Source of the DNA: Minisyncoccota bacterium
GTDB lineage: Bacteria; Patescibacteriota; Minisyncoccia; Phycocordibacterales; Phycocordibacteraceae
DNA: 28,937 nt
Reading direction: 5' to 3'
Assembly (NCBI GenBank): GCA_036386775.1
Contig: DASVVA010000016.1
Coordinates: 1-28,937 of the forward strand
This document shows, piece by piece, positions 23,424 through 26,121 of the stretch. Every line of letters begins with the position of its first letter. The stretch's first letter is position 1. Made by a program: the position numbers and the translations under genes. A model generated the notes under the pieces. That model was not told the DNA's origin. It saw only the letters and a list, made by a program, of their open reading frames with translations, and ran no database searches.

Positions 23424-23463
23424 CAAAAGAAAGAAGGCCGCTTCCGCGGCCTTCTTTCTTTTG
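23424..23463. terminator. Long bidirectional terminator-like hairpin
   Basis: CAAAAGAAAGAAGGCCGC-ttcc-GCGGCCTTCTTTCTTTTG: perfect 18-bp stem. Confidence 0.85.
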
Positions 23464-23470
23464 ATATACT
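23462..23470 (+). promoter_or_regulatory. Extended -10 promoter for ndk
   Basis: TGA-TATACT abutting the hairpin. Confidence 0.55.
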
Positions 23471-23511: not shown

Positions 23512-24120
23512 ATGCCAATTCCTCACCCCAAAACAGAACGGTCTTTTGTCATCATCAAGCCCGACGGTGTACAGCGCTCACTCATCGGTGAGATCCTCAG
23601 TCGTTTCGAGCGCACAGGCCTCAAGCTAGCTGCGCTTAAAATGGCAGTTCTTGATTCTGACCGCATCTGGAAGCACTACGATAAGGACGACGAATGGTTC
23701 GAGAGGAAGGGTAAGGCCATTGCAGAGGACCGTGCGGCGGCGGGCCTGTCTGCGGAAAAAGAGCCAATCGAATACGGCAAAGACATCATCCGTGCGCTCG
23801 ATCGGTATATGACGAGCGGCCCGGTAGTTATGATGGTGTGGGAAGGGAATCAGGCGGTTTCAGTCGTTACGAAGCTCGTTGGCGACACTGCCCCAGCCTC
23901 GTCTGATGTGGGTACTATTCGTGGAGATCTCACCATAGATTCGTACAACCTGTCCGCTGTTGACGACCGAGCCGTACGCAATCTCATCCACTGCTCTGAT
24001 ACTCCCGAGAACGCCCAAAAAGAGATTGAACTCTGGTTCACGCCCGAAGAGCTTATTCAGTACCGTCTTCTTAACGAAGCGATACTCTACGATGTGAACC
24101 TTGACGGTATTCTGGAATAA
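23512..24120 (+). CDS. ndk: Nucleoside diphosphate kinase with internal insertion (start at 23512)
   Basis: ERSFVIIKPDGVQRSLIGEI, YMTSGPVV, GTIRGD, RNLIHCSD, EIELWF. Confidence 0.95.
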   Translation: MPIPHPKTERSFVIIKPDGVQRSLIGEILSRFERTGLKLAALKMAVLDSDRIWKHYDKDDEWFERKGKAIAEDRAAAGLSAEKEPIEYGKDIIRALDRYMTSGPVVMMVWEGNQAVSVVTKLVGDTAPASSDVGTIRGDLTIDSYNLSAVDDRAVRNLIHCSDTPENAQKEIELWFTPEELIQYRLLNEAILYDVNLDGILE

Positions 24121-24148: not shown

Positions 24149-24177
24149 TTGCAGCAAAAAGGAGTACTCGTTATACT
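24149..24177 (+). promoter_or_regulatory. Sigma70-type promoter of the ncRNA
   Basis: TTGCAG-17 nt-TATACT; predicted start site near 24184, the first base of the closing stem. Confidence 0.7.
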
Positions 24178-24183
24178 GTCCTC

Positions 24184-24312
24184 AGAGCCGCTGATTCGAA
24201 AGTCAACTTGCGCTTTTTCAGGGAGCTTTACATCCAGGCCAGGCGAGCTTGCTCTACCCTAGCCGTGCGAGCACCCACGTGGCACAGGAAGTTGCCACCC
24301 GGCGGCGGCTCT
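24184..24312 (+). ncRNA. ssrS: Probable 6S RNA, unusually short (~130 nt)
   Basis: Rod-like fold: closing stem AGAGCCGCUG/CGGCGGCUCU; central bubble; CAACUU/AAGUUG; GGGAGC/GCACCC helix resembling Firmicutes-type 6S motifs as I recall them; apical GGC/GCC, AGG/CCU and GAG-CUUG-CUC; own promoter and terminator. Confidence 0.7.
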
Positions 24313-24315
24313 AGT

Positions 24316-24345
24316 AAGAAACCGGCATGTATGTGCCGGTTTCTT
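24316..24345. terminator. Intrinsic terminator of the ncRNA
   Basis: AAGAAACCGGCA-tgtatg-TGCCGGTTTCTT: perfect 12-bp stem. Confidence 0.8.
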
Positions 24346-24379
24346 GCGTTCTATTCACCAAAAAGAGCGAAGGCGTGCA

Positions 24380-24388
24380 TGCTACTCT
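24380..24388 (+). promoter_or_regulatory. Extended -10 of a probable leaderless transcript
   Basis: TGC-TACTCT, 6 nt, ATG 24395. Confidence 0.5.
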
Positions 24389-24394
24389 AAATTT

Positions 24395-24748
24395 ATGCGT
24401 CTCGCCTGGCTCTTCGCCGCACTCGTTCTTGCCATTCTGCTTGCGGGCGTGCACCTCTACGCGCTCCCGCATTTCTGGTATTGGTATTTTCCTTGGCTAG
24501 ACCTGCCAGTACATCTTTTGGGAGGTGCCTTCATGGCAACTGCTGTTATCGGTGTGCTGGGCCGCTTTAGGCCGCTCGTGTTCCTGGTCGTTGTTACCGC
24601 CGGGGCTGTTGGATGGGAAGTTTTTGAGCTCGTCGTTAATGTCGACAGGGAAATGAACTTCGTTTTTGATACCTCGATGGACCTTCTCATGGACACCCTC
24701 GGCATTATCCTTAGCTACGCAACTGCGCGACTTACTATATGGCGATGA
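24395..24748 (+). CDS. Small membrane protein, DUF2238/VanZ-like (start at 24395)
   Basis: WLDLPVHLLGG...WEVFE...DTSMDLLMDTLG pattern of His/acidic residues in TM helices. Confidence 0.65.
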   Translation: MRLAWLFAALVLAILLAGVHLYALPHFWYWYFPWLDLPVHLLGGAFMATAVIGVLGRFRPLVFLVVVTAGAVGWEVFELVVNVDREMNFVFDTSMDLLMDTLGIILSYATARLTIWR

Positions 24749-26121
24749 AACTCACTTTTCACGGGGGCGCAGAGACTGTTACTGGTTCTAACTTCCTCGT
24801 AGAAGGATCTAAAGGGGGGCTGCTTGTTGATTGCGGCGTTGAACAGGGCGAACACTATTGTCAGGGCTGTATGTATGACCCTTTTCCGTATGACGTAACT
24901 TCAATCGACGCGCTCATCATCACCCATGGTCACCTAGATCACATTGGCCGCGCGCCTAAGCTCATCCGCGAAGGGTTTAAAGGAACCGTATACTGCACCG
25001 CGCCTACGCGCGATATTATGGCGCTTATCCTGCTTGATTCAGCGCGCATACTTGGGCAGGAGGCGCGCTCACAGGGTAGAGAGCCGATGTACGACGACCG
25101 CGATGTCGAGGCGCTTATGAATCGGGTCAAGACGATCGAGTACGGGCAGGAGTGGGAGGCTGCGCCCGGTCTCTCTTGCGTGTTGCGACAGACGGGTCAT
25201 ATCTTGGGGTCGGCAAGTGTTCGTATCAAAGACGAGGAAGGTGTGGGGCTCGCTCTTACGGGCGACATAGGCAACTCACCGTCGCCTTATCTGCCCGATC
25301 CCGAGCCTATACAAGACGCTGACGTACTAGTAATGGAGAGCGTGTACGGTGACCGGGAGAACCCTCAGGAAGGCAGAGTAGAAATGCTGCGAGATGTTCT
25401 TAAGGCAGCGATTTCGCGCGGCGGCCCAATTCTAATCCCTGCTTTTTCTATAGAGCGCACACAGCTCATGCTCTACGAGATCAGCAATTTTATGGAGACG
25501 GGGGAGATACCCAAGATCCCGGTCTTCCTTGACTCACCGCTTGCCATTAAGGTCACCGACGTCTATTCCAAATGGGGAAGCAAATACTTCAAACCAGAGG
25601 TAGACGATGAGCTTAAGCGCGAACACGACATTTTTCGTTTTCCATTCCTGACACAGACCCCTGGGCGCGAAGACTCGGAAGCTATCACCGAGACCCGTGG
25701 CTCCAAAATCATCATCGCGGGCGCGGGCATGTCTCACGGAGGCCGTATTGCTCGCTGGGAGGAGCGCTATTTGCCTGATCCGACAACAACTCTTATGATC
25801 GTCGGCTACCAGGCCCCAGGTAGTCCAGGTCGCCTACTTCAGGATGGCGCACGGACCATACGCATTAACAGTCGACAGGTCCCCGTTCGTGCCAAAGTGG
25901 GGACATACTTAGGCTGGTCTGCGCATGCTGACCGCAATGGCCTACTCGCCTTTGCCGAAAAGTCGCTGCCGCGGACGAAGACTATATTCGCTGCCCTCGG
26001 CGAACCAGCAAGCGCTCGCTTCCTGGCACAACGGATTCACGACTTCTTGGGCGTACGTGCCATTGTTCCGACGGAGGGGGAGGTGTGGGAAATTACGAAG
26101 GAGGGCGCTCAGCGTGTATAA
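24739..26121 (+). CDS. Metallo-beta-lactamase/beta-CASP family nuclease (YSH1-like, RNA-metabolising)
   Basis: FHGGAETVTGSNFL, VDCG, THGHLDHIG, GHILGS, TGDIG, MESVYG, PAFSIERTQ, GMSHGGRI, VGYQAPGSPG, SAHAD. Confidence 0.92.
   Translation: MAMKLTFHGGAETVTGSNFLVEGSKGGLLVDCGVEQGEHYCQGCMYDPFPYDVTSIDALIITHGHLDHIGRAPKLIREGFKGTVYCTAPTRDIMALILLDSARILGQEARSQGREPMYDDRDVEALMNRVKTIEYGQEWEAAPGLSCVLRQTGHILGSASVRIKDEEGVGLALTGDIGNSPSPYLPDPEPIQDADVLVMESVYGDRENPQEGRVEMLRDVLKAAISRGGPILIPAFSIERTQLMLYEISNFMETGEIPKIPVFLDSPLAIKVTDVYSKWGSKYFKPEVDDELKREHDIFRFPFLTQTPGREDSEAITETRGSKIIIAGAGMSHGGRIARWEERYLPDPTTTLMIVGYQAPGSPGRLLQDGARTIRINSRQVPVRAKVGTYLGWSAHADRNGLLAFAEKSLPRTKTIFAALGEPASARFLAQRIHDFLGVRAIVPTEGEVWEITKEGAQRV

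Follow-up and report, generated by a model that had tools for sequence, protein, structure and literature searches.

A probable short and divergent 6S RNA homologue encoded between ndk and a beta-CASP gene in an ultra-small soil bacterium of the Paceibacteria

The window analysed here is the 28,937-nt contig DASVVA010000016.1 from an ultra-small soil bacterium (CPR/Paceibacteria), and all coordinates refer to this whole stretch of DNA. All features described lie on the forward strand and are framed by two synteny anchors: upstream ndk, encoding nucleoside diphosphate kinase (23512–24120; Pfam NDK, E 1.7e-39), and downstream a beta-CASP/metallo-beta-lactamase RNase-type gene (24739–26121; Pfam Beta-Casp 4e-26, Lactamase_B and RMMBL). 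A facultative neighbour, the gene for a small membrane protein of 117 aa without a Pfam match (24395–24748), precedes the latter. Between ndk and this gene lies the 129-nt structural core of a 6S-like RNA (24184–24312), which is matched by R1, a covariance model built from nine homologues, with 99 bits and an E-value of 1e-19. Its -10 box, TATACT, was placed at 24172–24177 by sequence and by conservation in the homologues, and an intrinsic terminator hairpin of 13–15 bp followed by a T-rich tail was found by folding and comparison at 24314–24347. Further downstream, TGCTACTCT (24380–24388) resembles an extended -10 box and lies 6 nt ahead of the start ATG of the membrane-protein gene, which therefore appears to possess its own promoter and a leaderless mRNA.

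In the consensus fold the core is a rod made of a closing stem, an inner helix, a central bubble with strands of 11 and 12 nt and an apical arm. The 5' strand of the closing stem (24184–24193) forms 10 bp with 24303–24312, and the inner helix, H2, pairs CAACUU (24204–24209) with AAGUUG (24289–24294). The 5' strand of the bubble (GCGCUUUUUCA, 24210–24220), unpaired in the consensus, would be the expected region for the start of pRNA synthesis; the 3' strand (ACGUGGCACAGG, 24277–24288) lies within a conserved CCCAC(C/G)UGG motif. At the base of the apical arm, GGGAGC (24221–24226) pairs with GCACCC (24271–24276) around an A.A mismatch in the middle, and the variable remainder of the arm (24227–24270) ends in a GAG/CUC stem with a CUUG loop (24248–24251). 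The 129-nt RNA with paired ends, both internal helices and the CUUG-capped stem had all been proposed by a sequence-only reading and were recovered at the same positions, with covariation in the pairing of the ends. The bubble and the terminator of that reading are also present, but their dimensions needed correction, from about 10 and 8 nt to the strand lengths given here and from 12 bp to 13–15 bp, respectively.

Homologues were not readily accessible by sequence similarity: blastn among relatives recovered only the 3' third of the RNA, and full-length homologues were identified at the same position in sister genomes by reading the flanks. With R1, exactly one copy was found in 133 of 151 same-genus genomes (103 of the 111 of high quality). 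For the order, which comprises over 100 families, 151 genomes were sampled, and a second model, R2, built from 100 sequences, detected a single copy in 48 of them. Of 30 same-genus loci and 29 loci of the order, 27 and 21, respectively, have ndk beside the RNA, as had been anticipated for homologues of this RNA, and 29 and 22 the beta-CASP gene; the order ndk, RNA, (small membrane protein), beta-CASP is thus kept in nearly all loci of the genus and about three quarters of those of the order. The beta-CASP/RMMBL gene (24739–26121), as the conserved downstream neighbour across the order, is a candidate processor of the RNA's ends. Two departures from a single copy were seen. One same-genus genome (G010, 5% contamination) gave three model matches on separate contigs, and a locus from another family of the order (L150 in G232) gave two R2 matches, 1501–1624 and 1742–1906, about 120 nt apart on the same strand, which are possibly tandem 6S paralogues.

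In 99 of 100 homologues the RNA is preceded, at a distance of 3–8 nt, by the end of a TAnnnT box (TATACT, TATAAT or TATAGT), against a background rate of 0.13 per equivalent window, and a hairpin with a T-run follows within 25 nt downstream in 97 of 100 (median -19 kcal/mol). No conserved open reading frame was found across the homologues, whose longest ORFs have a median of 25 aa, and the lengths of the RNAs are evenly spread over the three classes modulo 3. These data bear out the proposal of a stand-alone transcription unit without a credible ORF. They agree only in part with the proposed promoter, TTGCAG-17-TATACT: the hexamer TTGCAG is present (24149–24154), the spacer to TATACT is 17 nt and TATACT is conserved, but TTGCAG is not, since over 97 homologues the best -35 match did not outscore a control displaced by 8 nt, and the hexamer is probably incidental. 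In two other loci (L002 and L006) the ndk terminator hairpin abuts the -10 box of the RNA with almost no spacer (compare 23424–23470 of the window), so that the hairpin occupies the place of a -35; this junction of a palindrome and TATACT is of the same type that the sequence-only reading had marked elsewhere in the window.

The succession of promoter, structured domain, terminator and gene is the classic layout of a riboswitch, and the position directly after ndk is conserved, both of which would fit a cis-acting element. This might be a structured 3' UTR of ndk, or a leader of the riboswitch or attenuator type in front of the membrane-protein gene or the beta-CASP gene. The gene that follows the RNA is not the same in all genomes, however: the membrane-protein gene is missing in G005, G017 and G013, where the beta-CASP gene directly follows the RNA. 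Each of the six loci inspected (the window's own, L002, L003, L004, L006 and L007) has a TGnTAnnnT box, i.e. an extended -10 box, after the RNA terminator and before the start codon that follows. The -10 box of the RNA itself is kept in 99 of the 100 homologues, and some genomes place a separate ndk terminator immediately before it. No conserved anti-terminator pairing was seen, and no Rfam cis-regulatory family matched beyond terminator noise. As ndk is separately terminated in some genomes and the TGnTAnnnT box is present in the six loci, the RNA is best described as neither a 3' UTR nor a leader. The riboswitch or leader reading was rejected on the grounds of a variable downstream gene with a promoter of its own, and we regard a cis-acting element of any of these kinds as very improbable. 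Judged from these sequence comparisons, the window RNA is the product of a conserved, single-copy and non-coding gene that is predicted to be transcribed separately. The only sequencing run listed was that of the source soil-metagenome DNA, with no RNA run beside it. In the six loci read, the TGnTAnnnT box lies 2–11 nt before the ATG, without a Shine-Dalgarno sequence (24380–24397 in the window), which suggests that the gene after the RNA makes leaderless mRNAs.

Support for the rod comes from the comparison with relatives. RNAalifold on the nine-sequence alignment returned it unaided, with GCAACUU/AAGUUGC, an open bubble, GGG.GC.../...GC.CCC and the apical arm. When 100 sequences were compared, 94.2% of pair cells held standard pairs and compensatory changes were seen at 22 of the 29 pairs, as the proposal of a covarying rod had demanded; none of 500 shuffles reached the observed pairing and covariation values, and sliding the 3' partners by 1–3 columns left pairing at 39–53%, with a covariation score of about 0.10 instead of 0.40. 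Most of the covariation sits in the closing stem and the apical pairs. The helix of the closing stem shows compensatory changes at 12 of 12 pairs, with 95.9% of cells paired. H2 is paired in 98.6% of cells, with rare compensatory changes in three of its seven pairs (e.g. CGACUU/AAGUCG in G017). All 100 homologues have GGG/CCC at the base of the apical arm, the pairs after it covary, and CCCAC(C/G)U is near-invariant; H2 and GGG/CCC are so nearly invariant that they carry little information on pairing. The single-sequence fold of the 129-nt core is not unusually stable (z = -1.2) and its minimum-energy form lacks the rod, which is why the case was built on the comparison with relatives.

The apical arm differs in length and sequence among the homologues and is the most variable part of the RNA. 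This bears on whether the gene might encode the SRP (4.5S) RNA, a reading that had to be considered since no SRP RNA is found by Rfam in genomes of the genus (no RF00169 or RF01854 match in five genomes, three of them single-contig), and 4.5S RNA is of a similar size, about 100–140 nt. Domain IV of bacterial SRP RNA consists of a GNAR tetraloop with flanking symmetric and asymmetric loops, and this universally conserved domain occupies the apex, whereas the apex of the window RNA is where conservation is lowest. The SRP models give no signal on the window RNA, and neither an Ffh M domain nor an SRP54-type GTPase was detected in genomes of the genus, so that the binding partner of an SRP RNA was not found. 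We excluded the SRP reading on the strength of the absent model signal, the variable apex and the lacking Ffh M domain, and its probability is close to nil.

Several observations on the SRP and on other structured RNAs stand apart from this question. The five genomes of the genus yielded neither small nor large SRP RNA, nor an Ffh M domain (PF02978), nor an SRP54-type GTPase. The SRP54-type GTPase domain was found in none of 60 families of the order and in 0 of 51 genomes, 50 of them spread across the phylum, while all 14 named control genomes were positive; the result across the phylum is surprising, and a blind spot of the search is possible. The source genome of the window (G000) has no DT[AS]GR motif in any frame, and the DTAGR sites fetched from five near-complete genomes all lie in unrelated or tiny ORFs. 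A tRNA/tmRNA scan found nothing, and both tmRNA and RNase P RNA are present elsewhere in genomes of the genus. In a subclade of the genus marked by CCUGG (G005, G017, G013; L009, L011, L012) the apical arm carries a conserved GGUGA...YCC-GNRA-GGA...CCGA module, i.e. a GNRA tetraloop with GA-rich internal-loop strands. To judge from its sequence it is possibly a kink-turn or loop-E-like motif, and it is lacking from the window's own subclade.

A relationship to 6S RNA was proposed by the sequence-only reading, and a relaxed search with the Rfam 6S model had a divided outcome. The window copy itself matched no Rfam family at the gathering score (whole window), nor at E ≤10 beyond terminator or chance noise (401-nt and 156-nt stretches), and 20 further same-genus loci likewise gave no RF00013 match but only terminator or chance noise. 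Among 41 relatives, RF00013 gave five matches below threshold, all five exactly on orthologues of the window RNA. The best of these, in G005, spans the full model length with 35.1 bits (E 4.9e-6 per genome); the gathering cut-off of 46.4 bits is a database criterion and not a biological property. In the G005 alignment the inner helix, the U-rich 5' bubble strand, GGGAG and CCCACCUGG fall onto the matching parts of the 6S consensus, H2 aligns to the RF00013 helix that flanks the bubble, and the 3' bubble motif fits the RF00013 consensus CCCACCUgg.

Across the phylum, RF00013 exceeded its gathering score in 7 of 151 genomes (about 5%) and reached E ≤0.01 in 22. The Rfam-certified Patescibacteria 6S RNAs share the AGGGAG...GCACCCAC(C/G)UGG core with the window family, and the phylum RNAs detected by RF00013 carry an AGGGAG...GCACCCACCUGG core along with a hairpin in the 3' bubble strand. 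R2 matched 10 of 20 RF00013-detected phylum RNAs at the same place, and in the reverse direction R3, a model made from RF00013-detected Patescibacteria RNAs only, matched 28 of 29 order-level loci at the position of the RNA (best E 4.5e-8) and several same-genus loci at that position (E 4e-4 to 7e-3). On the window's own copy, R3 gave 11.5 bits (E 0.24), which is not significant and ranks third behind terminator artefacts. Because the window copy lacks both a direct RF00013 match and a significant R3 match, its assignment is transitive, through orthologues: a chain leads from certified 6S RNAs to the order-level and some genus-level orthologues and from there to the window copy (R1, E 1e-19, and synteny), the shared ndk, RNA, beta-CASP order tying the order-level matches to it. 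A search for the pattern CACCCACSTGGCA-N5-12-AGTTGC over 185,579 species genomes gave matches in Candidatus Paceibacterota, Parcubacteria and Kaiserbacteria MAGs; the matches outside the CPR were dismissed as chance, about 70 being expected by our own estimate and 0 of 18 tested having an Rfam family at gathering score.

The family could instead be a conserved stand-alone small RNA of other function, such as a base-pairing regulator or the ligand of another protein, whose rod and CCCACCUGG-like motif resemble 6S RNA by convergence or distant descent and which does not sequester polymerase. It counts for such a reading that the window RNA and most same-genus copies score nothing against RF00013, that rod-like folds are common and that 6S function is here argued from sequence comparison. 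Against it, the matches between the window family and RF00013-detected 6S RNAs run both ways and always meet at the same locus, core sequence on both sides of the bubble and a release-type hairpin are common to both, and the gene is single-copy and near-universal in the manner of housekeeping genes. We consider this reading unlikely. Ms1 RNA of Actinobacteria (PMC9130861) likewise has a 6S-like structure and interacts with RNA polymerase, but its target is the core enzyme, it occurs in Actinobacteria only and its sequence differs, and nothing in the window RNA points to it.

The orthologue matches of RF00013, R2 and R3 together with the shared core thus support the 6S assignment, and we infer, with a probability of roughly 80%, that 24184–24312 is a divergent short homologue of 6S RNA (ssrS) with its own -10-type promoter and terminator. 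It is most likely a new, short and divergent member of the known 6S family and not a new kind of element. Like the 6S RNAs known as RF00013 (SsrS of E. coli, 6S-1 of B. subtilis), it appears as a rod of closing stem, central bubble and apical arm, with a U-rich 5' bubble strand followed by GGGAG, CACCCAC(C/G)UGG on the 3' bubble strand, a predicted hairpin in which the 3' bubble strand joins the 3' strand released from the neighbouring helix, and a single-copy, independently transcribed gene. Unlike them, it has a core of 129 nt instead of about 160–200, with each closing-side arm about 20 nt shorter; the window copy has no RF00013 match and its orthologues reach at most 35 bits against the cut-off of 46.4; its genomic context is ndk/beta-CASP; and it is known from sequence alone. 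The certified Patescibacteria 6S RNAs come from the same phylum and have in common with it the AGGGAGYY...UGCGGRCACCCACCUGG core, a 3'-bubble hairpin that starts in CACCU and similar apical arms. They differ in their length of 142–197 nt and longer closing stems, and the window genus often has CGUGG in place of CCUGG, with the hairpin shifted by 1–2 nt.

Few regulators act globally on the transcription machinery; 6S RNA, which restrains RNA polymerase by imitating an open promoter, is among them. The genome of the window organism encodes an RpoD-type sigma factor (348 bits), and by inference from E. coli and B. subtilis the rod would mimic an open promoter and tie up the holoenzyme of RNA polymerase that contains the primary sigma factor. 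Once nucleotides are available again, the 5' bubble strand and the inner helix would be copied by the polymerase into pRNA. For this template the E. coli analogy points to about 24195–24211, in place of the 24184–24200 proposed by the sequence-only reading. Synthesis of the pRNA would free AAGUUGCCAC and so allow a hairpin, GUGGCA/UGCCAC, to form, upon which the bubble would collapse and the polymerase would be released.

This hairpin (GUGGCA at 24279–24284, UGCCAC at 24293–24298) was earlier proposed as a competitor of the rod and release switch, and both folding in silico and comparison argue for it. It shares UG (24293–24294) with the 3' strand of H2 and is present in the minimum-energy fold of the window RNA in place of the rod; the two states are near-isoenergetic, the forced rod having -46.2 and the hairpin fold -48.4 kcal/mol, about 2 kcal/mol apart. 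With nt 14–28 blocked, as they would be by a pRNA duplex, the hairpin fold remained, so that in silico the window RNA is predicted to be able to refold into the 3'-bubble hairpin once the adjoining helix is opened. Within the genus, 72% of the hairpin's cells are paired and its covariation is modest; some compensatory changes are seen at positions that do not belong to H2, where one pair occurs as GC, GU, AU or UA and another as GC, CG or UA. A hairpin arising from the CACCU motif was found in 75% of RNAs of the genus, 97% of those of the order and 80% of the certified phylum RNAs, compared with 14–29% for shuffled tails, and its stems vary widely (e.g. CCUAG/CUAGG, CCUGG/CCAGG, CCUGCAA/UUGCGGG). 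A hairpin opposite the 5' bulge is part of the canonical 6S consensus (PMC8414754), and in 6S RNAs of the E. coli type the 3' bubble strand pairs with the helix strand that has become free, giving an extended hairpin (PMC8876501).

In contrast to published 6S RNAs, which are rod-shaped and about 160–200 nt long (PMC8414754), the structural core of the window RNA is short, and the sequence-only reading was right to describe its closing stem as curtailed. GGGAG starts at nt 38 of the window RNA versus nt 50–58 in most certified Patescibacteria 6S RNAs, from which it follows that each closing-side arm is about 20 nt shorter than in the latter. The part missing relative to RNAs of 160–200 nt would be the distal closing stem, which, according to reports, is not needed for binding. 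About 170 nt separate the presumed start from the T-tail of the terminator, and the transcript would have this length and not 129 nt if the terminator hairpin were retained. We tentatively entertain that the mature RNA has only about 100–130 nt in the order, the terminator hairpin being trimmed or functionally irrelevant, and hold the odds to be somewhat against it.

A shortened natural 6S form is plausible. Truncated 6S-1 RNAs of 78–82 nt still bind polymerase, template pRNA and are released (PMC8876501). These engineered minimal B. subtilis forms (6S78, 6S82cp; PMC8876501) resemble the window RNA in having a bubble between short helical arms only, and their behaviour indicates that a much reduced 6S RNA can still pass through binding, pRNA synthesis and release. 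They are, however, artificial, bind about 10-fold more weakly and do not contain the -35-like part of the apical arm, whereas the window RNA is natural and keeps a full apical arm. If mature RNAs of 100–130 nt were confirmed, they would be the smallest natural 6S RNAs and a natural counterpart of the engineered ones, and a whole order would run the cycle of binding, pRNA synthesis and release with only about 20 bp-equivalents of downstream arm, which could point to a co-adapted CPR polymerase or sigma factor.

6S RNA is said to be present in nearly all bacteria. No open-access paper was found that mentions it together with CPR, Patescibacteria, Saccharibacteria or Parcubacteria. The understanding of the 6S mechanism is unchanged by the finding; annotators would gain a model for finding a 6S gene that is missed by the standard Rfam model, and natural short variants would become available with which to work out the minimum that polymerase binding and release require. 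A link of the window RNA to dormancy, as suggested by the sequence-only reading, is speculation. If the assignment holds, a very diverse order of the Paceibacteria keeps a single-copy, compact 6S gene, which would mean that these minimal genomes retain growth-phase control of RNA polymerase.
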